In this document: positions 1 to 21,626 of the stretch, piece by piece
Position numbering within the stretch: position 1 is the first letter of the stretch
Layout: each line of letters starts with the position of its first letter
Assembly (NCBI RefSeq): GCF_058153355.1
Contig: NZ_CM177019.1
Strand: one strand, 5' to 3'
Length of the DNA stretch: 64,000 nucleotides
Notes under the pieces: generated by a model
What the model saw: only the letters and a program-made list of their open reading frames with translations
Told to the model about the DNA's origin: nothing
Database searches by the model: none
Position numbers and translations under genes: made by a program

Positions 1-1377
1 GGGTACAAGCCCCTACCGCTAAAAAGAGTTTTTATACCCAAATCTAATGGCAAGAAAAGACCATTAGGAATCCCCGTCATGCTTGACAGGGCAATGCAGG
101 CCCTGCATCTGCTGGGATTGGAGCCTGTATCGGAAACTAATGCAGATCACAACAGTTATGGTTTCAGACCAGCGCGATGTACGGCTGACGCCATTCAACA
201 GGTATGTAATATGTATAGTTCCCGGAACGCCTCGAAATGGGTTCTGGAAGGCGATATTAAAGGATGCTTTGAACACATTAGCCACGAGTGGCTGCTTGAA
301 AATATTCCTATGGACAAGCAAATACTCCGTAATTGGTTGAAAGCCGGGATCATCGAAAAAAGCATATTCAGCAAAACTCTCTCGGGTACACCCCAGGGAG
401 GAATCATATCTCCAGTTCTGGCAAACATGGCCCTGGATGGACTGGAAAGACTGCTGCAAAATCGCTTTGGTCCGAAACGCTCAAAAACATTCAGGAAACA
501 TCAGGTTCACTTCGTCCGGTATGCTGATGATTTCATCATTTCCGGAAAGTCGAAAGAACTTCTGGAGGAGAATGTTCTTCCGTTGGTGAAATCATTTCTT
601 GCAGAAAGAGGGCTGACGTTATCCGAAGAGAAAACGGTCATCACTCACATTACTGACGGATTTGATTTCCTTGGGCAGCACGTCCGACGCTTCGGTAGAA
701 AACTCATAATCAGACCAGCCAAGAAAAACGTTAAACAATTTCTTAGCAAGATCAGAGAGACTATTGAAGGTAACCGAACGGTTCCTGCATGGGTGCTAAT
801 AAATCTGCTTAATCCAATCATCACCGGGTGGGCAAACTATCACCAACATGTAGCATCGGCAGAGACATTTAACTATGTCGACAACCAAATCTGGCGCAAA
901 ATCTGGCAGTGGTGCAGAAGGAGACATCCCGGCAAAGGCCGGAGATGGATCTTCCGAAAGTACCACACGACAATAAAAATGTGTCATGGTCGATTTTATG
1001 GAGTCGATCCGGAGGGTAGGAAATATGTTCTGTCCCGGGCCAGCGACATCCATATTAATCGCTATATAAAAATAAAGGGAACGGCAAATCCATATGATCC
1101 CGAGTGGGAAACATACTTCGAAAGAAGGCTGGACTACTCATGGAAGAAATCCCAACAGGGGCAGAAAAGGATTCTCGCTATATGGAAAAGGCAAGGATCG
1201 CGCTGCCCTTTATGTGAGCAACCGATTAATCGCGATACAGGATGGAATGTTCATCATTTGCTCAAGAAATCTCTTGGCGGTAGCGATGATGTGAGCAATT
1301 TAGTCCTACTCCATCCCAACTGCCATCGACAACTACATAGTAATGACGCTGGTCTCCCACAAGGTGGAGGCTTATAA
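1..1377 (+). CDS. Group II intron-encoded protein (reverse transcriptase / maturase / HNH endonuclease), 5'-partial
   Basis: Frame 1 is open from nt 1 (GYKPLPLKRVFIPKSNGKKRPLGIPV...); FVRYADDFII RT motif; ITGWANYH maturase motif; C-terminal CPLC...HH...HPNCH HNH motif. Confidence 0.85.
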   Translation, partial: GYKPLPLKRVFIPKSNGKKRPLGIPVMLDRAMQALHLLGLEPVSETNADHNSYGFRPARCTADAIQQVCNMYSSRNASKWVLEGDIKGCFEHISHEWLLENIPMDKQILRNWLKAGIIEKSIFSKTLSGTPQGGIISPVLANMALDGLERLLQNRFGPKRSKTFRKHQVHFVRYADDFIISGKSKELLEENVLPLVKSFLAERGLTLSEEKTVITHITDGFDFLGQHVRRFGRKLIIRPAKKNVKQFLSKIRETIEGNRTVPAWVLINLLNPIITGWANYHQHVASAETFNYVDNQIWRKIWQWCRRRHPGKGRRWIFRKYHTTIKMCHGRFYGVDPEGRKYVLSRASDIHINRYIKIKGTANPYDPEWETYFERRLDYSWKKSQQGQKRILAIWKRQGSRCPLCEQPINRDTGWNVHHLLKKSLGGSDDVSNLVLLHPNCHRQLHSNDAGLPQGGGL

Positions 1378-1383
1378 AGGCTT

Positions 1384-1417
1384 GAGCGGTATGCGGGGAA
1401 ACTCGCACGTACCGTTC
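1384..1417 (+). ncRNA. Group II intron domain V (catalytic hairpin)
   Basis: GAGCGGTATGCGGG-GAAA-CTCGCACGTACCGTTC: about 34-nt hairpin with conserved AGC triad and GNRA-type loop, directly after the IEP stop. Confidence 0.7.
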
Positions 1418-1420
1418 TTA

Positions 1421-1455
1421 GGGGGCGGCGAGACAGTAATGAATCGCTGCTACCC
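1421..1455 (+). ncRNA. Group II intron domain VI with bulged branch-point adenosine (A1452)
   Basis: ggg/ggcggcga-loop-tcgctgct/A/ccc: 8-bp stem plus 3-bp basal stem with single unpaired A on 3' side. Confidence 0.5.
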
Positions 1456-1493
1456 GACCACCCGCAAATTCAATTCATTGCGCCCCATCGCAG

Positions 1494-1518
1494 GCCTGAT
1501 AAGCGTAGCGCATCAGGC
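1494..1518. repeat. REP (repetitive extragenic palindromic) element downstream of cobB
   Basis: Palindrome gcctgataagcgtagcgcatcaggc. Confidence 0.6.
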
Positions 1519-1531
1519 AATGCTTCCTGCT

Positions 1532-2353
1532 TTATAAGCCCTTCAGCAACTTTTCAACAAACTCTGGCACCACCTGGCTTGCCGGGCCGTAATATTTCTC
1601 GGCAAATTCATTACCGACCTGACTCGGTTCAAGATTGAGTTCCACAGTGTGCGCACCATGCAGTTTCGCTTCGTGAACAAATCCAGCCGCCGGATAAACA
1701 TGCCCGGAAGTACCAATGGCAATGAAAATATCGGCCATCGACAACGCCATATAAATTTCATCCATGCCGAGTGGCATTTCGCCAAACCAAACGACGTGCG
1801 GGCGCAAGGGTGCCGGGAACTGGCAACAATGGCATTTATCTTCTGGCGTAACGTCTCCGGTCCAGTCGAGAATCTGACCACTTTGCGAACAACGTACTTT
1901 CAGCAATTCCCCATGCATATGAATCACATTGGTATTACCTGCGCGTTCGTGCAGATTGTCGATATTCTGCGTCACCAGCAAAAAGCGATCGCCGAGAGCA
2001 TCTTGCAGTTTAGCTAGCGCAAGATGCGCGGCGTTAGGCTGAATTTCTGGCTGCTGTAGCTGTCGACGACGGGCGTTATAAAACGCTTGCACCAGTTCAG
2101 GATCGCGATCGAAACCTTCCGGCGTTGCCACATCTTCAACCCGATGTTCTTCCCACAGGCCATCTGCGGCGCGAAAGGTACGAATACCTGATTCCGCGGA
2201 AATCCCTGCCCCTGTCAGTACGAGTACTCTTGGTTTTTCCATTGCTTCCGGCACCACTTTATCTCTGAAAAAAATACGCTGACGCAAACGCTCGCGCAGG
2301 CGGCGTTTATTTTTACGAAAACGACTTAACCGATGACCCCGACGCGACAGCAT
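1532..2353 (-). CDS. cobB: NAD-dependent protein deacylase (sirtuin), long isoform
   Basis: 273-aa ORF with [11 protein letters not shown]ossmann motif and zinc-binding cysteines; recognised as CobB. Confidence 0.9.
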
Positions 2354-2368
2354 AGCAACCTCTGTTGT

Positions 2369-3280
2369 TTAATCGGTTAGATGTAGGAAAGCCGCACCAC
2401 GCATTCCTCCCGCATCACCGTGGCGCGCGCGTTCAATGCGCGGAACACGAGCTACAGGTAAGAGATGACGAGGCAGCCTGTCCGCCAGTTGCGTTGTGAT
2501 TGCCGGGAAATTCGATAAGCCACCACCAATGACGACCAGGTCAGGGTCAACAATGGTCAGGATATTTCCCAGACAAACCGCTAATAAATCCAGATAACGC
2601 TCAACGTGCGCCCTTGCCTGCTCATCGCCTTGATCATAAAGCGCAATAATTTCGGGAGCCTGCAACGGTTGATGATAATAGTGTTGATACAGCCACGCAA
2701 AACCGCGACCAGACAGATAATTTTCAATGCAGCCATGCTGACCACAGCCGCAGCGGCGTAATGGGAAATCCAGCCCCATCATGGTTAACGCATCAACCGG
2801 CAGACGCATATGGCCAAACTCGCCGGTAATATAGCTTTTACCGGTAATTGGTTTACCGTTGAAAATCAGCCCGCCGCCAACGCCGGTGCCGAGAATCAAC
2901 CCCATCACCAGTGGATATTGAGTAAATTCATCATCCCAGGCTTCTGAAAGGGCAAAACAGTTGGCATCGTTATCAAGGCGGACATCGCGATCAAGACGTG
3001 CGCTCAGATCTGCACGCAGCGATTTACCGCTGGCAGCGGGGACATTGGCGGCATACAGCGTACCATCTTCTGTTTCCGGCATTCCCGGAATACCGATGCC
3101 GACAGAACCTTTACAGCCAAAACGCTTATCGGCTTCAGCCACCAGCTCGCACACTGCATCTAAAAATGCGTCATAGCTGTCACGCGGTGTCGGCACGCGC
3201 TTTTCCCACTGCAACTGCCGACCGCTATTAAACACGCCAAGCGCAATTTTTGTTCCACCAATATCAAACCCGTAATACAT
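2369..3280 (-). CDS. nagK: N-acetyl-D-glucosamine kinase
   Basis: ROK-family protein; start placed at internal ATG ([11 protein letters not shown]) giving 303 aa. Confidence 0.85.
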
Positions 3281-3308
3281 TGCCGCTCCTTGTTTTAATG
3301 TACTGCCT

Positions 3309-6557
<3,249 letters not shown>

Positions 6558-6707
6558 TCAATCGGCTAAATTGCCATGTTTTATCATCAATCTTGCCGCC
6601 TGATCTTAATCTGAAAAATCATCCAATACAGACAGATACCCATTACACCTCGGGTCATAACCCGCAGGATCAACCGCATGTAAATTAAAAAAGAGCGTGT
6701 TGTCCTG

Positions 6708-7781
6708 ATGAAACAAAAAGAGCTATGGATTAACCAGATCAAAGGGTTATGTATTTGTCTTGTAGTGATTTATCACTCGGTCATTACCTTTTATCCGCAT
6801 CTGACCACTTTTCAGCATCCGTTATCGGAAGTCCTGAGCAAATGCTGGATCTATTTCAATCTTTACCTTGCCCCCTTTCGTATGCCGGTTTTTTTCTTTA
6901 TTTCTGGCTATTTGATTCGCCGCTATATCGACAGCGTACCGTGGGGAAATTGTCTCAATAAACGCATCTGGAACATCTTCTGGGTGCTGGCGCTGTGGGG
7001 CGTGGTGCAGTGGCTGGCGTTAAGTGCGCTGAATCAGTGGCTGGCACCTGAGCGCGATTTAAGCAATGCCTCCAATGCCGCTTATGCCGATTCCACCGGT
7101 GAGTTCCTGCACGGGATGATCACCGCCAGCACCAGCTTGTGGTATCTGTATGCTTTAATTGTCTATTTCGTGATATGTAAACTTTTTAGCCGTCTGGCGC
7201 TGCCACTATTCGCCTTGTTTGTGCTGCTGAGTGTCTCTGTTAATTTCGTTCCCACGCCGTGGTGGGGAATGAACAGCGTGATCCGCAATTTGCCTTATTA
7301 CAGTCTTGGCGCATGGTTTGGCGCAACATTAATAACCTGTGTTAAAGCGGTGCCGTTGCGCCGCCATCTGCTGATGGCTTCTTTGTTGGCCGTTCTGGCG
7401 GTCGGTGCCTGGTTGTTTAATATCTCGCTGCTGTTGTCGCTGGTATCGATTGTGGTGATCATGAAACTGTTTTATCAGTACGAGCAACGCTTCGGTATGC
7501 GCTCCTCCAGCCTGCTGAATGTGATTGGCTCCAACACCATTGCTATCTATACCACCCATCGCATACTGGTAGAAATATTCAGCTTAAGCCTGATTCCGCA
7601 AATGAACGCGGCACGCTGGTCGCCGCAAATCGAACTGACGCTCCTGCTGGTTTACCCCTTTGTCAGTTTGTTGATTTGTACTGTTGCGGGCTTGCTGGTA
7701 AGAAAACTTTCACAGCGCGCATTCAGCGATCTGTTGTTCTCCCCGCCTTCTCTGCCCGCTACCGTCAGTTACTCCCGCTAA
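6708..7781 (+). CDS. ycfT: Inner membrane acyltransferase-3 family protein
   Basis: 357-aa polytopic membrane protein; synteny. Confidence 0.8.
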   Translation: MKQKELWINQIKGLCICLVVIYHSVITFYPHLTTFQHPLSEVLSKCWIYFNLYLAPFRMPVFFFISGYLIRRYIDSVPWGNCLNKRIWNIFWVLALWGVVQWLALSALNQWLAPERDLSNASNAAYADSTGEFLHGMITASTSLWYLYALIVYFVICKLFSRLALPLFALFVLLSVSVNFVPTPWWGMNSVIRNLPYYSLGAWFGATLITCVKAVPLRRHLLMASLLAVLAVGAWLFNISLLLSLVSIVVIMKLFYQYEQRFGMRSSSLLNVIGSNTIAIYTTHRILVEIFSLSLIPQMNAARWSPQIELTLLLVYPFVSLLICTVAGLLVRKLSQRAFSDLLFSPPSLPATVSYSR

Positions 7782-7908
7782 ACCATCGCCCCTGGCGGGG
7801 CGATTCGATTTGCTAAACCATGTCGATTACGGATAATGAACAGCATTGCTTATCAGAGATATGCCCCCATATGTTGAGGCATATCCTAACGAGAATCTGA
7901 CAACCGTT

Positions 7909-10900
7909 ATGCCTGAACAATATCGTTATACGCTGCCCGTCAAAGCGGGTGAGCAGCGTCTGCTGGGCGAGTTAACTGGCGCTGCCTGCGCGACGCTGGT
8001 AGCGGAAATTGCCGAACGTCACGCCGGTCCGGTGGTACTTATTGCACCAGATATGCAAAATGCTCTGCGTTTGCATGATGAAATCAGCCAGTTTACCGAT
8101 CAGATGGTGATGAATCTGGCGGACTGGGAAACCCTTCCCTACGACAGTTTTTCGCCTCATCAGGACATTATCTCCTCACGCCTTTCCACTCTTTACCAGC
8201 TACCAACGATGCAGCGTGGCGTACTGATTGTTCCGGTGAATACGCTTATGCAGCGCGTTTGCCCGCACAGTTTCCTCCACGGCCACGCGCTGATGATGAA
8301 AAAAGGTCAGCGGTTATCTCGTGATGCCTTGCGTACGCAACTGGACAGTGCCGGTTATCGCCATGTTGACCAGGTTATGGAGCACGGCGAATACGCCACG
8401 CGCGGCGCGTTGCTGGATCTTTTCCCGATGGGCAGCGACTTGCCTTATCGTCTTGATTTTTTTGATGATGAAATTGACAGTCTGCGGGTGTTTGACGTCG
8501 ATAGCCAGCGCACGCTGGAGGAAGTAGAAGCGATCAATCTGTTGCCCGCGCACGAATTTCCGACCGATAAAGCGGCGATTGAACTGTTCCGCAGCCAGTG
8601 GCGCGATACCTTCGAAGTGAAGCGCGACCCGGAACATATTTATCAGCAAGTGAGTAAAGGCACATTACCTGCCGGGATCGAGTACTGGCAGCCGCTATTC
8701 TTCAGCGAACCGCTGCCGCCACTGTTCAGTTATTTCCCTGCCAATACGCTATTGGTGAATACTGGCGATCTGGAAAACAGTGCCGAACGTTTCCAGGCTG
8801 ACACGCTGGCGCGTTTTGAAAATCGCGGCGTCGATCCGATGCGTCCACTGTTGCCACCACAATCGCTCTGGCTGCGGGTAGACGAGCTCTTTTCAGAGCT
8901 AAAAAACTGGCCGCGTGTGCAGCTAAAAACTGAACATTTACCGACAAAAGCAGCGAATGCCAATTTAGGTTTCCAGAAGCTGCCAGACCTGGCCGTTCAG
9001 GCACAACAAAAAGCGCCGCTGGATGCGCTGCGTAAGTTCCTCGAGTCTTTCGACGGTCCGGTGGTGTTCTCGGTAGAAAGTGAAGGTCGCCGTGAAGCGC
9101 TGGGTGAACTGCTCGCGCGAATTAAAATTGCTCCTCAACGCATTATGCGTCTTGATGAAGCCAACGACCGTGGGCGTTATCTGATGATTGGCGCTGCCGA
9201 ACATGGTTTTGTCGATACGGTACGTAATCTGGCGCTGATTTGCGAAAGCGATCTGCTCGGTGAACGCGTTGCCCGTCGTCGTCAGGATTCTCGCCGCGCC
9301 ATCAACCCCGATACACTGATCCGTAACCTTGCGGAGCTGCATATTGGTCAGCCGGTGGTCCATCTGGAGCACGGCGTCGGGCGCTATGCAGGAATGACCA
9401 CGCTGGAAGCCGGCGGCATTACCGGCGAGTATTTGATGCTCACCTATGCCAACGACGCCAAACTGTATGTTCCGGTGTCGTCACTGCATCTGATTAGCCG
9501 GTACGCAGGTGGCGCGGAAGAAAATGCCCCGCTGCATAAACTTGGCGGCGATGCGTGGTCACGCGCGCGGCAGAAAGCGGCGGAAAAAGTGCGTGATGTG
9601 GCGGCAGAATTGCTGGATATCTACGCGCAACGCGCCGCCAAAGAGGGCTTCGCGTTTAAACACGATCGTGAACAATATCAATTGTTCTGCGACAGCTTCC
9701 CGTTTGAAACCACGCCGGATCAGGCGCAAGCCATTAATGCAGTGCTTAGCGATATGTGTCAGCCGCTGGCGATGGATCGTCTGGTGTGCGGCGATGTTGG
9801 CTTTGGTAAAACAGAAGTTGCGATGCGCGCCGCTTTCCTGGCGGTAGATAACCACAAGCAGGTGGCGGTGCTGGTGCCTACCACCCTTCTCGCGCAGCAG
9901 CATTACGACAACTTCCGCGACCGTTTCGCCAACTGGCCGGTACGCATCGAAATGATCTCCCGTTTCCGCAGCGCCAAAGAGCAGACGCAAATCCTTGCGG
10001 AAGTGGCGGAAGGGAAAATCGATATTCTGATCGGTACGCACAAACTGCTGCAAAATGACGTCAAGTTTAAAGATTTAGGTCTGCTGATTGTCGATGAAGA
10101 ACACCGCTTCGGGGTGCGTCATAAAGAGCGCATTAAAGCGATGCGGGCGAACGTGGATATTCTGACACTTACCGCAACGCCGATCCCACGTACGCTGAAT
10201 ATGGCAATGAGCGGAATGCGCGATCTGTCGATTATCGCTACGCCGCCTGCCCGTCGTCTGGCAGTTAAAACCTTTGTCCGTGAGTATGACAGTCTGGTGG
10301 TCCGGGAGGCGATCCTGCGTGAAATTTTGCGCGGGGGACAGGTTTATTATCTCTACAATGATGTGGAAAACATCCAGAAAGCCGCCGAACGACTGGCAGA
10401 ACTGGTGCCAGAGGCGCGGATCGCCATCGGCCACGGGCAGATGCGTGAGCGCGAACTGGAACGGGTGATGAATGATTTCCATCATCAACGTTTCAACGTG
10501 CTGGTTTGTACCACCATTATCGAAACCGGGATCGACATCCCTACCGCTAACACCATTATCATTGAACGCGCGGATCACTTCGGTCTGGCACAACTCCACC
10601 AGTTGCGCGGTCGCGTCGGACGTTCGCATCATCAGGCATATGCATGGTTGCTGACGCCGCATCCAAAAGCGATGACCACCGATGCGCAAAAACGTCTTGA
10701 AGCGATTGCCTCGCTGGAAGATCTCGGTGCAGGTTTTGCGCTGGCAACGCACGATCTGGAGATTCGCGGCGCAGGTGAACTGCTTGGCGAAGAACAAAGC
10801 GGCTCAATGGAAACCATCGGTTTCTCGCTGTATATGGAGTTGCTGGAAAACGCCGTCGATGCGCTGAAAGCCGGACGCGAGCCGTCGCTGGAAGATCTCA

Positions 10901-11355
10901 CTAGCCAGCAAACAGAAGTCGAGCTGCGGATGCCGTCGCTATTACCAGATGATTTCATTCCTGACGTGAATACGCGTTTGTCGTTCTATAAACGTATTGC
11001 CAGCGCCAAAACGGAAAACGAACTGGAAGAGATCAAAGTTGAGCTTATCGATCGCTTCGGCCTGCTGCCGGATCCGGCGCGTACCCTGCTGGATATTGCC
11101 CGTCTGCGCCAGCAAGCGCAGAAACTGGGGATCAGGAAGCTGGAAGGTAATGAGAAAGGTGGGGTGATCGAATTTGCCGAGAAGAATCACGTTAATCCGG
11201 CATGGCTGATTGGTTTGCTGCAAAAACAGCCACAGCATTACCGCCTTGATGGTCCGACGCGCCTGAAGTTTATTCAGGATTTGAGCGAGCGGAAAACGCG
11301 TATCGAATGGGTACGCCAGTTTATGCGTGAACTGGAAGAGAACGCGATCGCTTAA
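7909..11355 (+). CDS. mfd: Transcription-repair coupling factor
   Basis: 1148-aa protein from MPEQYRY; superfamily 2 helicase motifs (GDVGFGKTEVA, DEEH). Confidence 0.95.
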   Translation: MPEQYRYTLPVKAGEQRLLGELTGAACATLVAEIAERHAGPVVLIAPDMQNALRLHDEISQFTDQMVMNLADWETLPYDSFSPHQDIISSRLSTLYQLPTMQRGVLIVPVNTLMQRVCPHSFLHGHALMMKKGQRLSRDALRTQLDSAGYRHVDQVMEHGEYATRGALLDLFPMGSDLPYRLDFFDDEIDSLRVFDVDSQRTLEEVEAINLLPAHEFPTDKAAIELFRSQWRDTFEVKRDPEHIYQQVSKGTLPAGIEYWQPLFFSEPLPPLFSYFPANTLLVNTGDLENSAERFQADTLARFENRGVDPMRPLLPPQSLWLRVDELFSELKNWPRVQLKTEHLPTKAANANLGFQKLPDLAVQAQQKAPLDALRKFLESFDGPVVFSVESEGRREALGELLARIKIAPQRIMRLDEANDRGRYLMIGAAEHGFVDTVRNLALICESDLLGERVARRRQDSRRAINPDTLIRNLAELHIGQPVVHLEHGVGRYAGMTTLEAGGITGEYLMLTYANDAKLYVPVSSLHLISRYAGGAEENAPLHKLGGDAWSRARQKAAEKVRDVAAELLDIYAQRAAKEGFAFKHDREQYQLFCDSFPFETTPDQAQAINAVLSDMCQPLAMDRLVCGDVGFGKTEVAMRAAFLAVDNHKQVAVLVPTTLLAQQHYDNFRDRFANWPVRIEMISRFRSAKEQTQILAEVAEGKIDILIGTHKLLQNDVKFKDLGLLIVDEEHRFGVRHKERIKAMRANVDILTLTATPIPRTLNMAMSGMRDLSIIATPPARRLAVKTFVREYDSLVVREAILREILRGGQVYYLYNDVENIQKAAERLAELVPEARIAIGHGQMRERELERVMNDFHHQRFNVLVCTTIIETGIDIPTANTIIIERADHFGLAQLHQLRGRVGRSHHQAYAWLLTPHPKAMTTDAQKRLEAIASLEDLGAGFALATHDLEIRGAGELLGEEQSGSMETIGFSLYMELLENAVDALKAGREPSLEDLTSQQTEVELRMPSLLPDDFIPDVNTRLSFYKRIASAKTENELEEIKVELIDRFGLLPDPARTLLDIARLRQQAQKLGIRKLEGNEKGGVIEFAEKNHVNPAWLIGLLQKQPQHYRLDGPTRLKFIQDLSERKTRIEWVRQFMRELEENAIA

Positions 11356-11365
11356 TAGTTAATCG

Positions 11366-11387
11366 GGGGCGTTTCTGCGCCCCCATC
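11366..11387 (+). terminator. Putative intrinsic terminator after mfd
   Basis: GC-rich hairpin gggggcg-tttct-gcgccccc after stop. Confidence 0.5.
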
Positions 11388-11498
11388 TGCAACATTTACA
11401 AATTCTTTGCACTTCCCTGCACTATCCGACACTGTCACCATCCATAATTCAGGCTTATCTGTTTATTACAATAACCTTATATTTATTATGGATTTTTG

Positions 11499-12461
11499 GT
11501 GATGATCAAAACGCGTTTTTCTCGCTGGCTAACGTTTTTTACGTTCGCCGCTGCCGTGGCGCTGGCGCTACCGGTAAAAGCCAACACCTGGCCGCTGCCG
11601 CCAGCAGGCAGTCGTCTGGTTGGCGAAAACAAATTTCATGTGGTGGAAAATGACGGTGGTTCTCTGGAAGCCATCGCCAAAAAATATAATGTCGGCTTTC
11701 TCGCTCTGTTACAGGCTAACCCCGGCGTTGATCCTTACGTGCCGCGCGCGGGTAGCGTGTTAACGATCCCGTTGCAAACCCTACTTCCAGATGCGCCGCG
11801 CGAAGGCATTGTGATCAATATTGCGGAACTGCGTCTCTATTACTACCCGCCGGGTAAAAATTCGGTAACCGTGTATCCCATCGGCATTGGTCAGTTGGGT
11901 GGTGACACGCTGACACCGACAATGGTGACCACCGTTTCTGACAAGCGTGCAAACCCAACCTGGACGCCAACGGCAAACATTCGCGCGCGGTATAAGGCAC
12001 AGGGAATTGAGTTGCCTGCGGTAGTTCCGGCTGGACCGGATAACCCAATGGGCCATCATGCGATTCGTCTGGCGGCCTATGGCGGTGTTTATTTGCTTCA
12101 CGGTACGAACGCCGATTTCGGCATTGGCATGCGGGTAAGTTCTGGCTGTATTCGTCTGCGGGATGACGATATCAAAACACTCTTTAGCCAGGTCACCCCA
12201 GGTACCAAAGTGAATATCATCAACACCCCGATTAAAGTCTCTGCCGAACCAAACGGTGCGCGTCTGGTTGAAGTACATCAACCGCTGTCAGAGAAGATTG
12301 ATGACGATCCACAACTGTTGCCAATTACGCTGAACAGCGCAATGCAATCATTTAAAGATGCAGCGCAAACTGACGCTGAAGTGATGCAGCATGTGATGGA
12401 TGTCCGTTCCGGGATGCCGGTGGATGTCCGCCGTCATCAAGTGAGCCCACAAACTTTGTAA
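11499..12461 (+). CDS. ldtC: L,D-transpeptidase (YkuD domain, LysM)
   Basis: Signal peptide, LysM and YkuD domain with HGT...SSGCIRL catalytic motif; GTG start assumed (MMIKTRF). Confidence 0.85.
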   Translation: MMIKTRFSRWLTFFTFAAAVALALPVKANTWPLPPAGSRLVGENKFHVVENDGGSLEAIAKKYNVGFLALLQANPGVDPYVPRAGSVLTIPLQTLLPDAPREGIVINIAELRLYYYPPGKNSVTVYPIGIGQLGGDTLTPTMVTTVSDKRANPTWTPTANIRARYKAQGIELPAVVPAGPDNPMGHHAIRLAAYGGVYLLHGTNADFGIGMRVSSGCIRLRDDDIKTLFSQVTPGTKVNIINTPIKVSAEPNGARLVEVHQPLSEKIDDDPQLLPITLNSAMQSFKDAAQTDAEVMQHVMDVRSGMPVDVRRHQVSPQTL

Positions 12462-12478
12462 ATCCTGGATAAAAAAAT

Positions 12479-12503
12479 CCCCGCGACACGGCATGTCGCG
12501 GGG
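12479..12503. terminator. Bidirectional intrinsic terminator between ldtC and bhsA
   Basis: ccccgcgacacggcatgtcgcgggg hairpin flanked by A-run and T-run. Confidence 0.6.
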
Positions 12504-12543
12504 AAAAAAATCAGCAGTAGCAGGCATTAATGAGGGTTAATGC

Positions 12544-12801
12544 TTATTTATAAATTACTGCTGTTCCATGGACGGTATTCGGACCGGTTACAGAAGTAAT
12601 ACGGAAAGATTTTGCGCCCATCTCATCCGCTTTTTGCGCCAGCTGCTCTTCCAGCGATCCCAGATTTGTCCCCGCGTTAGCACTGATAGTACCGACTTTT
12701 TGTTGGCCTTCTGGCGTTGACTGAACTTCGACAGCCGCAAAGCTGGCAAATGACATTGAGCTTAAAATCGCCGCAGCGATGAGGGTTTTTACGTTTTTCA
12801 T
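12544..12801 (-). CDS. bhsA: Multiple stress resistance outer-membrane protein (DUF1471/YhcN family)
   Basis: 85-aa secreted protein; recognised sequence. Confidence 0.85.
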   Translation of the reverse strand: MKNVKTLIAAAILSSMSFASFAAVEVQSTPEGQQKVGTISANAGTNLGSLEEQLAQKADEMGAKSFRITSVTGPNTVHGTAVIYK

Positions 12802-13041
12802 AATAGTGGCCTTATGCAGATGAATGACGTCGCAAGCAATTACTTAACGATCGATAACTAAATGATAGATGTGATCTGGATCACATACAAGATATTTTTT
12901 ATAACAATCATTAATTAATTTAAAAATCTTTAAATTTCAGTTAAATAGAAAGCAATTATTTTTATGGTTTGTGGACTGGTGAACGGAGGTGATTATTTTT
13001 ATAATAACCTTTCATTCACAGTCACCAGGTACAACGGCATC

Positions 13042-13674
13042 ATGGCAACTGACTCAACACAATGTGTAAAAAAAAGCCGTGGCCGCCCAAAAGTGTTCGA
13101 CAGGGATGCCGCGCTTGATAAGGCCATGAAATTGTTCTGGCAGCACGGTTATGAAGCGACTTCTCTTGCGGACCTCGTCGAAGCGACCGGAGCCAAAGCG
13201 CCCACGCTATACGCGGAATTTACCAACAAAGAGGGGTTATTCCGCGCCGTACTCGACCGCTATATCGATCGTTTTGCCGCTAAGCATGAAGCACAGCTGT
13301 TTTGTGAAGAGAAAAGCGTGGAGTCTGCGCTGGCTGACTATTTTGCTGCCATCGCCAACTGCTTTACCAGCAAAGACACCCCGGCTGGCTGCTTTATGAT
13401 CAACAACTGCACCACCCTCTCCCCGGATTCCGGAGATATCGCCAATACGCTGAAATCACGCCATGCGATGCAAGAGCGCACTTTGCAGCAGTTTTTATGT
13501 CAACGACAAGCGCGCGGGGAAATCCCGACCCACTGTGATGTGACGCATCTGGCTGAATTCCTTAATTGTATTATTCAGGGGATGTCGATCAGCGCACGCG
13601 AAGGTGCATCGCTGGAAAAACTGATGCAGATTGCCCGAACGACTTTGCGTTTATGGCCCGAACTGGTGAAATAA
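13042..13674 (+). CDS. comR: TetR-family transcriptional repressor
   Basis: 210 aa from MATDSTQ; N-terminal TetR HTH. Confidence 0.85.
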   Translation: MATDSTQCVKKSRGRPKVFDRDAALDKAMKLFWQHGYEATSLADLVEATGAKAPTLYAEFTNKEGLFRAVLDRYIDRFAAKHEAQLFCEEKSVESALADYFAAIANCFTSKDTPAGCFMINNCTTLSPDSGDIANTLKSRHAMQERTLQQFLCQRQARGEIPTHCDVTHLAEFLNCIIQGMSISAREGASLEKLMQIARTTLRLWPELVK

Positions 13675-13736
13675 GGCGCAAAAAAAAGCCCCTCAGCCTG
13701 AGCGAATGGGGGGCTAAATTGCAGAATACAGCCTTG

Positions 13737-14276
13737 TTATACTTTGTTATTCAAAATCAGTTGCCCGTTGCCATCTAACGGGATCTGCGTACCCGGATCG
13801 CGGTCCATGCGGATTTTGCCCTGCTGATCGCCAATCTTATAGGTCACATCATAACCGAGCATTTTTTCTGACTTGTCATACACCGTTTTACAACGCTGTT
13901 GCGTAGTCGTGTAAGTATCGCTTTCCTGGAGAGAGCCCTGGATCTGGTTACCGGCATAGCCACCTCCCAGCGCCCCCACAACAGTGGCGACATCTTTACC
14001 GCGACCACCGCCAAACTGATGCCCTATCACGCCGCCAGCAACAGCGCCGAGCACCGACCCGGTAATGCGATTTTCATCCTGCACCGGTCGACGATGGGTC
14101 ACTGTGACGTTGCGACACTCCTGACGCGGTGTTTTAACCGTTTCCTTGATTGGGGTTGCAGAAACAACCTGAGCGTATTGCGGGCCACGTTCAAACACGT
14201 TCAGACTGGCCACTGCCGCTACGCCCAACGCAGCTGCGACACCAATCCCCATACCCGCCAACATTGATTTATTCAC
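13737..14276 (-). CDS. ycfJ: Glycine-zipper membrane protein (Rick 17 kDa antigen family)
   Basis: 179 aa with GTG start preceded by GGAGGTG RBS. Confidence 0.8.
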   Translation of the reverse strand: MNKSMLAGMGIGVAAALGVAAVASLNVFERGPQYAQVVSATPIKETVKTPRQECRNVTVTHRRPVQDENRITGSVLGAVAGGVIGHQFGGGRGKDVATVVGALGGGYAGNQIQGSLQESDTYTTTQQRCKTVYDKSEKMLGYDVTYKIGDQQGKIRMDRDPGTQIPLDGNGQLILNNKV

Positions 14277-14402
14277 GGGAACACCTCCTTCTTTGCTGTT
14301 ATGCCAATCATGCAAGTGAAGGAGAAAAGCAGCTATCAGACAGAAGATGAAAAGCGCGGGAATGGCTGGAAATACTTAGGGATTCGGAGGAGTCTGAAGG
14401 AA

Positions 14403-14492
<90 letters not shown>

Positions 14493-14502
14493 TACAAGCC
14501 GA

Positions 14503-15807
14503 TTAATGCAACTTCAAACGTGGACGGATAACGCGGTTAATACTCCCCACCAGCATCATTAATCCGGTTTTAAAGTAACCATGCAGCGCAATCTGATGCA
14601 TTCTGTATAGCGAGATGTATACAAAGCGCGCAATTCGTCCTTCAATCATCATTGAGCCGCGCGTCAGGTTACCCATCAGGCTACCAACGGTGGAGAAATT
14701 CGACAACGATACCAGCGAACCGTGATCTTTATACTGATAATTTTTCAGCGGCTTACCGTTCATCTGCGCCAGAATGTTGTTCATTGCGCAGGTTGCCATC
14801 TGGTGTGCGGCCTGCGCACGCGGCGGAACAAAGCCCCCTTCCGGACGCGGGCATGACGCGCAGTCGCCAATAGCGTATATGTCTGGATCGCGAGTGGTTT
14901 GCAGCGTCGGTTCCACCACCAGCTGGTTGATACGGTTGGTTTCAAGACCACCGATATCTTTCAGGAAGTCTGGCGCTTTGATCCCGGCTGCCCACACCAT
15001 CAGATCAGCCTCAATATATTCACCATCTTTAGTGTGCAGGCCGCCTTCATCAGCACTGGTGACCATGGTTTGCGTCAGCACGCGAACGCCAAGTTTCGTT
15101 AACTCATTATGGGCCGCAGCAGAAATACGTGGCGGCAACGCAGGCAAAATACGTTCGCCCGCTTCTACCAGCGTTACGTTCAGGGCTTCGTTGGTCAGAC
15201 CTTTATAACCGTAGCTGTGCAGTTGCTTGACCGCGTTGTGCAATTCTGCGGAGAGTTCTACACCCGTCGCGCCGCCGCCGACAATCGCAATGTTCACTTT
15301 ACCATTCGCGCCCAGGTTGGCGGAGTATTTCAGGAACAGATTCAGCATCTCCTGGTGGAAACGACGCGCCTGATGCGGGTTATCGAGGAAAATGCAGTTC
15401 TCTTTGACTCCTGGCGTATTGAAATCGTTAGAGGTGCTGCCCAACGCCATTACCAGGGTGTCATAGGCGATTTTACGTTCCGGAACCAGCAGTTCACCTT
15501 TCTCGTCGCGCAGTTCTGCAATAGTGATTGTTTTCGCTTCACGATCAATATCAATGACGGAACCCAGCTGGAACTGGAAACCATGATTGCGCGCATGGGC
15601 CAGATAGCTCAACGCATCGACGCCTTCATCAAGCGAGCCAGTCGCCACTTCGTGCAGCAGCGGTTTCCACAAGTGGCTGTGGTTACGATCGACCAGCGTA
15701 ATTTTGGCTTTTTTCTTGCGTCCCAGCTTATGTCCCAGCTGTGTCGCCATTTCCAGCCCACCAGCACCGCCGCCGACAATCACAATTTTTTTCAATGGCG
15801 TAGTCAA
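14503..15807 (-). CDS. ndh: NADH:quinone oxidoreductase II (NDH-2)
   Basis: Two GxGxxG FAD/NAD folds; start assigned to TTG (MTTPLKK, 434 aa) after AAGGGGG RBS; an in-frame ATG lies 9 codons upstream. Confidence 0.9.
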
Positions 15808-16128
15808 CGTGACCCCCTTAAATTTATTAACCAATTGTTAACTAATAGTTATTAATATAGCTCTTAATTAACAACAGGTTACAGCAATGAAAATGTTCTT
15901 CGTTATTGAGAATAACATGAATGGTGCATTGGTCATACCAAAATTGATGTTAATCAAGTTTTGTTGCTGAAAAGATAGGCTGATTTACCGGATGAGATCA
16001 AAAAATACAGCTTATTGTTTATTATTCAAACGAATTCAGGAGGGTGAGACGTATATGGAGGGCGTTTGGTAGATACTGTTATGGCCTGCAAGTTTTTTTC
16101 TACCCCGGTTTCCCAGATTGCAGGCATG

Positions 16129-17430
<1,302 letters not shown>

Positions 17431-17492
17431 AGAATTTACAGAATCTGGAACGCATCAGGTATCAGCAAGGTTACCTGATGCGACGAGGGCAT

Positions 17493-18035
17493 TTAACCGA
17501 GGGTTTTGAACGCTTTAATGCGCTGCAAATGCGGGGAGATATTCTTGAATTTGTGCGTCTGCTCTTCGTCCCAGACAATCTCGTAATAATGATGCAACTC
17601 TTCAGATGTCCGCTGGCTGTTAAGCGCTTCATCGTTACGCGACAAAATCACCAGACAGCGATCGCGATTCTTCTCGCGGAAGTTGGTCACACACTTAGTG
17701 GCAATATCGGCATACTCTTCCGGGCGATCAATCTTGCCTTCCATGTTCTCATAAGGGAACAAATTAGGATTGAAGATCACCTGGCGGATATCGCAAAGAA
17801 AACCAATTCGCTCCGCCCAGTATCCGCCCAGACCAACGCCGCATATCAGCGGACGCTCATCGACGTTTAGTTGCAGCATTTTGTCCACTTCTTTGAGCAG
17901 ATGCTGCATATCATGTTTCGGATGCCGCGTACTGTAGCTTATCAAGCGTACATCCGGGTCAATAAACTGCAATTGTAAGACTTTCTCGTGGTTACCCGGA
18001 CTGTTAGAGTCAAAACCGTGTAAATAGATAATCAT
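17493..18035 (-). CDS. ycfP: UPF0227 alpha/beta-hydrolase-fold protein
   Basis: 180 aa from [12 protein letters not shown]. Confidence 0.8.
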
Positions 18036-18057
18036 CGCTTCCTCACATAAGCCAGGG

Positions 18058-19898
<1,841 letters not shown>

Positions 19899-19918
<20 letters not shown>

Positions 19919-20540
19919 CTTTACCTGACCAGATAATTTCACCCGTCTGCACCAGCATCAGCTGCATTTGTAGGGTCGGAGCGTTAACGTTGCCAGAGGC
20001 GCTGGAGTACAGCACGTAATGAGCGCCGACATTGCGGGCAATGCCTATGGCTTTACTACGGGTACCTAAACTGTCCTGCGGCGACAAACCTAACTGTTGC
20101 TTCGCCATCGACAGCTGCTGGGCGGAAACCAGGGTAAATTTACCGTTATTAGCCAGCGCATTTCGCAGCGTTTCGGTCGCTTCTGCGGCATTCAGCGAAC
20201 CGTTAGTACGGTTGTTAACGCTATCAACCAGAAGGACGCTACCCGCAGTCACCCCGTCAGCCCCAAGCATCTTACTGACCATCGGCTGCATTGCGCCATT
20301 CCAGTCATAATGGCGAATATGCGGTGCAGGCGGTGCAGTTTGATCTTCGTGCTCAATTGGGCCTGGCTGCTGCGGGATCGTCGGCACCGATGGCACCGTG
20401 GGCACAGGCTGTTGTGGCTCGGCTGGTTGTTCCGGCGCTGGTTTCACTTCTTCTACCGGTGCAGGTTCACGTTGCCCCACACACCCGGCGAGAAACATCG
20501 CCAGCGCGGCAATCAAAGCGTAGCGACTCATTTTTATCAT
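19899..20540 (-). CDS. lpoB: Outer-membrane lipoprotein activator of PBP1B
   Basis: Lipoprotein signal (LAGC), Pro-rich linker; 213 aa. Confidence 0.85.
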
Positions 20541-20553
20541 CAAGATTCACCCC

Positions 20554-20931
20554 TTACAAATATAGATAAAGTCTGACTTTGTGCGCCCCCAGAAAATTGG
20601 CGCTGCCGTATAGCGTTACCGCCGAATGTGCGGGAATGGTAACGCTGCGTGGCGTTTCCAGAGGATGCATCTCAAGTCCTCTGGCGTCATACCAGTAAAA
20701 ACGATAATGAACGGTAACGGGTTCTTGCCTTTCGTTATAAAGCGTTGAGGATGCTGAAGGTTGAATATCAGACGTCGAAAGGACGGGCTTTTCTGCACTG
20801 ATGCCCGCAGCCAATAAAGATGACTCCATCACCAGCGATTGCTCATCATTCACCGGAATTTCCGGATGTGAACGACAGCCCACCAGCACTAACAACGCCA
20901 GAGACACCAGCCCAAAGCATCCTTTTCTCAT
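20554..20931 (-). CDS. ycfL: Lipoprotein YcfL
   Basis: 125 aa with lipobox LVGC. Confidence 0.8.
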   Translation of the reverse strand: MRKGCFGLVSLALLVLVGCRSHPEIPVNDEQSLVMESSLLAAGISAEKPVLSTSDIQPSASSTLYNERQEPVTVHYRFYWYDARGLEMHPLETPRSVTIPAHSAVTLYGSANFLGAHKVRLYLYL

Positions 20932-20933
20932 CG

Positions 20934-21293
20934 TTACAGACCTTTATGCGCCAGCATTGGTCCCAGCGGACGGCCACCCAACAAGTGCATATGGATGTGA
21001 TACACCTCTTGTCCGCCATGGCGATTGGTGTTCATGATCAGACGATAGCCATCTTCGGCAATACCTTCTTGCTCAGCAATTTTTGCCGCTACGGTGATCA
21101 TGCGTCCCAGCGCCTGCTCATGCTCAGCAGACACGTCGTTCACAGTCGGAATGAGGATATTTGGAATGATCAGAATATGCGTTGGCGCTTGCGGCGAAAT
21201 ATCGCGAAACGCCGTTACCAGATCATCCTGGTAGACGATATCGGAGGGGATCTCACGACGAATAATTTTGCTAAATATAGTTTCTTCTGCCAC
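20934..21293 (-). CDS. hinT: Purine nucleoside phosphoramidase (HIT family)
   Basis: HIT motif [12 protein letters not shown] start (MAEETIF, 119 aa). Confidence 0.85.
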
Positions 21294-21626
21294 GACATTT
21301 TCCTTTTTCAAATAGCCATGCGTTGCGCCATGCTACGCCGCGCCATACTGCGAGTATAGAGTATGGTCGAGTTAAACCTGCTCTTTCAACCTTAACTCAC
21401 GATTTCTTAAGCAAAAAATCGTTTTGCTGCCGTATATATCGCCATTATTCCCATTTCTGCCTGCGAATTCGCTGAAAAGACATTCTTTGTTTGGTTTACA
21501 CGTCAAATATGAATGCGTATATTTCTCATTTGCATTTGCATGCAAAATTATTCGCACACTAAATATAACCGCTCATCATCCTCCTCCTGCATGAGCCTGA
21601 CGACAACATAAACCAAGAGATTTCAA

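Follow-up and report, generated by a model that had tools for sequence, protein, structure and literature searches.

In most Escherichia coli genomes cobB stops upstream of a REP element, and the longer K-12 form probably arose through loss of one T

Among the closest described counterparts of the gene considered here is cobB of E. coli K-12 (b1120, NP_415638.3), whose annotated coding sequence of 840 nt specifies a protein of 279 aa with the C-terminus ...KGLKAGSIA, and whose product is represented by the crystal chains 1s5p and 6rxj. In K-12, nagK lies upstream of cobB and a REP element lies downstream, so close that the gene overlaps it by its final two codons plus the stop, with the TGA placed inside the REP stem. 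In Salmonella, the longer isoform CobB-L (273 aa) and the shorter isoform CobB-S (236 aa) have both been reported to be active deacetylases (Tucker and Escalante-Semerena 2010, as cited in PMC10965786). A 273-aa CobB is also recorded from E. coli itself, where it is found in O157:H7 and many other strains (WP_000952736.1) and is annotated in RefSeq as an intact Sir2-family NAD+-dependent deacetylase. REP elements are known to protect mRNA 3′ ends. A REP situated fewer than 16 nt from a stop codon (within 15 nt) has additionally been reported to lower translation via ribosome stalling (Liang, Rudd and Deutscher 2015, as described in PMC12306157).

The window, by which we mean the whole 64,000-nt stretch analyzed here (contig NZ_CM177019.1), carries cobB on its minus strand at 1532..2353, stop codon included, where the ORF list gives a 273-aa Sir2-family NAD+-dependent protein deacylase (CobB-L) that also contains the internal Met38 start for CobB-S. 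The initial annotation was accurate in its reading of this 3′ end. Direct reading and the ORF list agree that the protein terminates ...EKLLKGL and is followed by a TAA stop codon at 1534-1532 (1532..1534, minus strand), in which the T at position 1534 is the base missing in K-12. Translation begun one base later (1513..1533, minus strand) yields KAGSIA followed by a TGA at 1515-1513, and this latent +1 stop sits within the 5′ arm of a REP-type palindrome at 1518-1493, as had been claimed. The C-terminus that it gives for K-12 CobB was likewise correct, and alignment to K-12 MG1655 confirms that a single T accounts for the difference between the two C-termini. At the indel, K-12 MG1655 reads TTAAAAGC while the window reads TTATAAAGC; over a slightly longer span, window GGCTTATAAAGCAGG aligns with K-12 GGATTA-AAAGCGGG, so that the two differ by one T and by two flanking SNPs. 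These two SNPs were omitted from the initial annotation.

Between the cobB stop and the REP lies a non-coding spacer of 13 nt, AGCAGGAAGCATT (1519..1531, minus strand, by direct reading), whereas in K-12 the stop is inside the REP. The REP itself occupies 1493..1518 on the minus strand, downstream of cobB, and is a perfect palindrome, GCCTGATGCGCTACGCTTATCAGGCC, identified by folding and by repeat-family identity. It conforms to the hairpin-forming imperfect-palindrome pattern GCC[G/T]GATGCG...CATC[A/C]GGC. This palindrome occurs once in the window versus 0 times in shuffled sequence, and it forms a hairpin in the MFE and centroid folds alike. The 91-nt 3′ region as a whole folds no more stably than shuffled sequence (z = 0.23 for the window, -0.52 for K-12), and the identification as a REP rests on repeat-family identity and not on folding energy. 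Across 5,390 genomes, 31 nt of the element match at 100% at 14,658 other sites in E. coli chromosomes (median 3 per genome), one example being an unannotated stretch of BW25113 at 841159-841189. The element is dispersed and, lying 13 nt past the stop, extragenic, as expected of a REP.

The protein encoded in the window appears complete in every respect that bears on catalysis. The Pfam SIR2 family (PF02146) matches residues 48-221 with an E-value of 3.5e-54 and a score of 183.9 bits against a cut-off of 24, covering profile positions 1-180 of 180, and the NAD-binding motif, QNIDNLH, the catalytic His in HMHGEL and the Zn-binding cysteines are all present in the translation of 1532-2353. Residues 1-273 of K-12 CobB are identical to the window protein except for V161I, with the same Sir2 domain and the same internal CobB-S start, and the gene, locus and neighbors (nagK upstream, REP downstream) are shared; K-12 cobB lacks the T of TTATAA and has six extra residues (KAGSIA), a tail that is absent from the window protein. 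Residues 39-273 of the window protein align to the K-12 crystal chains 6rxj and 1s5p at E ~1e-161, and over this span the 6rxj alignment contains a single V/I difference, again V161I. Comparison with WP_000952736.1 gives the same picture, as the window protein shares its length, its ...LLKGL end, its TAA stop and its downstream REP, and the sole substitution is a conservative one (V161 in WP_000952736.1, I161 in the window). An exact copy of the window protein is on record for 208 contigs, spread over several archives.

Several observations suggest that the six-residue KAGSIA tail is functionally dispensable. The SIR2 domain ends at residue 221 in both the 273-aa and the 279-aa forms. Positions 1-234 of the 235-aa chain 1s5p align to residues 40-273, so the chain holds at most one tail residue, and the folded CobB core therefore does not need the tail. 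In addition, the 273-aa CobB-L of Salmonella is the same length as the window protein and, as noted above, is reported to be active. The earlier expectation that the C-terminal difference is probably of little consequence is consistent with these points. Salmonella enterica cobB resembles the window gene beyond its length (locus L023 in our scan): it too encodes ...KGL followed directly by a stop, and it too has a REP-type palindrome a few nt 3′ of that stop, although DNA identity over the cobB region is ~82%, the REP belongs to a different subtype, and the spacer is 8 nt rather than the 13 nt of the window.

We determined how the two states are distributed within E. coli by querying 5,426 complete genomes with 35-36-mers in which every possible 28-nt megablast seed includes the indel together with the two SNPs that flank it. 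These haplotype queries replaced an initial 91-nt search, in which 3,669 E. coli genomes covered at least 80% of window positions 1490-1580, and C122 and BW25113 fell into the group without window-like sequence, but which did not separate the alleles by identity band. Three haplotypes contain the T, namely that of the window, GGC-T-GCA (473 genomes), together with GGA-T-GCA (1,855 genomes) and GGA-T-GCGGGAAAAA (1,101 genomes), bringing the T-containing total to at least 3,429 of the 5,426 genomes (63%), from diverse backgrounds that include O157:H7 and ExPEC/AIEC strains. The T is absent from 1,706 genomes (31%), and all but four of these carry the exact K-12 haplotype, GGA-del-GCG (1,702 genomes), a group to which K-12 derivatives, MC4100 and the BL21-derived strain BAP1 belong; the T deletion is thus present in roughly one-third of sequenced E. 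coli, with K-12, BAP1 and C122 among them. No genome among the 5,426 carries the haplotype of the window minus its T (GGC-del-GCA). About 290 genomes fit none of the tested haplotypes, and the two minor haplotypes seen there (loci L008 and L009) contain the T. Eight non-K-12 E. coli genomes were sampled across the identity range of the 91-nt search, among them O157:H7 DEC4E, 'clone D i2', one isolate from CSF and others from dog, chicken and human. Each of the eight has TTATAA and, in RefSeq, an intact 822-nt cobB CDS, mostly assigned to WP_000952736.1.

The T-less state is therefore nearly confined to one haplotype (1,702 of 1,706), which is the pattern expected of a single recent deletion in one lineage. 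The four other T-less genomes (NZ_CP073624.1, NZ_CP072539.1, NZ_CP173996.1 and NZ_CM172718.1; haplotype GGA-del-GCA) have GCA in place of GCG, and result either from a point mutation that followed in the K-12-type allele or from a separate loss of this T.

Outgroups point in the same direction. We searched a set of prokaryotic genomes, each species represented by one, for a codon-degenerate DNA pattern that encodes PEFV[DE]KLLKGL and leaves the downstream bases unconstrained, and in 49 of the 49 species-representative genomes that matched, a stop codon lies immediately 3′ of KGL. The matched genera include other Escherichia species, Salmonella, Citrobacter, Enterobacter and Leclercia; in the latter four and in others, TAA, TAG or TGA occupies the equivalent position. 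All six representatives of other Escherichia species have TTATAA. In E. whittamii, Escherichia sp. E1V33 and Escherichia sp. MOD1-EC7003, and in two divergent genomes that bear the E. coli label but share only ~93% identity with the window, the sequence GG[AG]TTATAAA is followed by a 13-nt spacer and then by the same REP. The protein family tells a similar story. Among the best 120 CobB cluster representatives (90% identity), 102 are 273-274 aa long and nearly all end in ...LLKGL or its equivalent, the commonest C-termini being VPE[YF]V[ED]KLLKGL, while the KAGSIA end occurs in 1 of the 120, a 279-aa K-12-type cluster. This cluster has 904 members versus 3,707 for the 273-aa E. coli cluster, and an E. 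albertii cluster member is 273 aa. The C-terminus in the window is thus at the position typical of enterobacterial CobB and is not truncated.

Because allele frequencies, outgroup states and the family C-terminus agree, TTATAA is very probably the ancestral state, and the K-12 lineage would then carry a derived 1-bp deletion of T that extended cobB into the REP. We place the probability of this reading, that the window has the ancestral and majority cobB 3′ end and that a T deletion in the K-12 lineage lengthened the gene, at about 95%. It reverses the polarity that had been assumed. The initial annotation held that an extra T trims the CobB tail in this genome, a view that aligning the 3′ end with K-12 and its relatives upholds as to the one-T difference and overturns as to its direction, since the relatives stop after KGL. 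Reference CobB proteins ending ...LKGL are abundant, in the family, in RefSeq and in all 49 matched species genomes, and the T is the majority allele (at least 3,429 genomes versus 1,706), probably deleted in K-12. In essence, the cobB of the window is not a frameshifted or truncated gene: its frame is that of the majority and, on the outgroup comparison, the ancestral one, and it is the K-12 form that is shifted.

The rival reading is a T insertion in this genome or its lineage, ending CobB early and costing it a normal six-residue tail. In its favor, compared with the K-12 reference alone the window does have an additional T, and its CobB is shorter by six residues. However, such an insertion would have to account for a T carried on several haplotypes by well over half of all complete E. 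coli genomes, for its presence in the other Escherichia species found, for the stop after KGL that is kept in other genera, and for a family C-terminus of ...LLKGL; the T-less state, moreover, is nearly confined to a single haplotype, as for a single recent derived event. We consider it very improbable, and the outgroup and population data together reject a derived insertion in the window lineage.

An error of sequencing or assembly in the window is less probable still. A single-base indel beside a run of A is an error-prone context on some platforms, and a second indel does exist in the window, in flgF, such that the two together would suggest low accuracy, as the initial annotation proposed in describing the cobB site as a second small indel alongside flgF that bears on the quality of the sequence. 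The authenticity of the T rests on the identical allele being found in hundreds of independent assemblies: the exact 36-mer is present in 473 independent complete genomes, the exact 273-aa protein on 208 contigs from several sources, and the T-less version of the window haplotype in 0 of 5,426 genomes, which together lead us to reject the error. The same allele is annotated as intact in RefSeq, and the site would not be an indel of this genome at all, since it is K-12 that appears to have lost the T. The flgF change is also not a homopolymer error. In the window, flgF (48607-49358, minus strand) has a 4-bp deletion that causes a frameshift relative to K-12, with the junction near 49096/49097; what has been lost is one unit of the CTGGCTGG tandem repeat (CTGG), turning GGCTGGCTGGCC into GGCTGGCC relative to K-12. 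E. coli 90-3040 has the same deletion and a flgF annotated in RefSeq as a pseudogene, and ~12 genomes give ungapped matches across the deletion junction. The change looks like a natural slippage-type mutation, possibly a recurrent one, rather than a typical base-calling error, and neither the cobB site nor the flgF site argues for poor sequence quality. The flgF frameshift is predicted to abolish motility. A further alternative, judged about as improbable as sequencing error, is that T-containing strains make both C-termini, via programmed +1 frameshifting or stop-codon bypass at TTA-TAA-A, with the KAGSIA frame serving as a conserved alternative tail. In most Escherichia haplotypes the +1 frame does run uninterrupted to the same TGA in the REP. 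However, this open frame spans just 6 codons, with the invariant REP as its limit, its peptide varies freely (KAGSIA, KAGKIA, KEGKIA, KAGRIA, KAGVIA, KSGVIA and KAGKIS), a stop closes it after two codons in Escherichia sp. E1V33, and the downstream sequence is unrelated outside Escherichia. Moreover, a slippery, prfB-like context is not evident on direct reading of the site. We reject a recoded alternative tail because the +1 frame is unconserved and is stopped in one Escherichia species.

The variation of the spacer is of the same kind. Among T-containing genomes it takes forms such as AGCGGGAAAAATT, AGAGGGAAAAATT, AGCGGGAAGAATT and ATCAGGAGTAATT; read in the K-12 frame, most of these variants would give different amino acids, and one contains a stop. 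Since the changes mostly alter K-12-frame amino acids and the frame is stopped in one Escherichia species, the spacer in T-containing genomes evolves as non-coding DNA.

The ancestral arrangement retained in the window would operate as follows. Translation of the 273-aa CobB would halt at the TAA after ...LLKGL, leaving a 13-nt untranslated spacer and then the REP hairpin, which, by analogy with other REPs, could act as a 3′ mRNA-stabilizing and possibly translation-attenuating structure. In a lineage that includes K-12, the B-derived BAP1, C122 and MC4100, one T of TTATAAAG would have been deleted. Loss of this T would have destroyed the TAA, such that ribosomes read six more codons (KAGSIA), made up of the former spacer and the very start of the REP, before meeting a fortuitous TGA in its 5′ arm. 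Placed side by side, the two forms differ in the geometry of stop and hairpin, with a K-12 TGA inside the REP stem and a window stop 13 nt upstream of it. At 13 nt after the stop, the cobB REP of the window fits the distance of <16 nt given for the translation-attenuating class in the account cited above; were cobB to belong to that class, stalled ribosomes, mRNA cleavage and tmRNA tagging would be expected to reduce its protein yield.

Salmonella, Citrobacter, Enterobacter, Leclercia and Pluralibacter have REP-type palindromes of other sequence (GCCGGATGGCG... and GCCGGGTGGCG...), placed 6-11 nt beyond the stop of cobB (loci L013, L015, L020, L022, L023, L026, L038 and L043). Their recurrence in several genera suggests that a hairpin near the stop is a conserved feature of the cobB 3′ end, despite the differing REP subtype.

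What is at stake is less the window than the reference strain. The cobB of the window is the ordinary, already annotated 273-aa form, and the residual curiosity concerns K-12. Comparison with K-12 alone made a normal gene seem truncated and cast doubt on the sequence, when it is the reference strain that is the outlier. The 279-aa CobB of nearly all E. coli sirtuin work would carry a lineage-specific six-residue tail derived from former spacer and REP, and about two-thirds of E. coli, along with other Enterobacteriaceae, are without the KAGSIA tail. There is a slim chance that K-12 has a CobB level systematically unlike that of most natural E. coli, either because the stop-to-REP geometry governs ribosome stalling and tmRNA tagging, as has been reported in other genes, or because the tail alters stability; if this were so, a K-12-specific abundance would limit how far acetylome and sirtuin results from K-12 can be generalized.

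The window also appears to come from a part of the species that is rarely encountered. Over 20 kb (1460-21460), the nearest of the 5,426 complete E. coli genomes matches it at 98.7% identity (N96, from a Tibetan pig), the other E. coli matches listed are at or below 97.2%, most of them at ~97%, and cryptic-clade Escherichia representatives are at 93-95%. The window thus seems to belong to a rarely sampled, divergent E. coli lineage, and the presence of the T in such a lineage is consistent with the T-containing allele being old.

On the far side of the REP, positions 1-1458 (plus strand) hold the 3′ part of a group II intron, recognized by the domains of its encoded protein and by Rfam, with its 5′ end beyond the window. 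The intron-encoded protein ORF (79-1377) has RVT_1, GIIM and HNH domains (reverse transcriptase, maturase and HNH), the Rfam Intron_gpII model (domains V-VI) matches at 1382-1458, and the 3′ exon starts at ~1459. The insertion site of the intron falls within the REP cluster that separates cobB from its convergent neighbor. A group II intron at this cobB-adjacent site was found in 0 of the 5,426 complete E. coli genomes, and the closest copies (97.7%) are on the plasmids NZ_AP045798.1 and NZ_CP010124.1. The intergenic REP cluster downstream of cobB appears to be a hotspot of rearrangement. In E. coli Z0117EC0005 and O157:H7 DEC4E, ycfZ and ymfA are absent and potD adjoins cobB, and in Z0117EC0005 a phage integrase and an excisionase lie just past potC.
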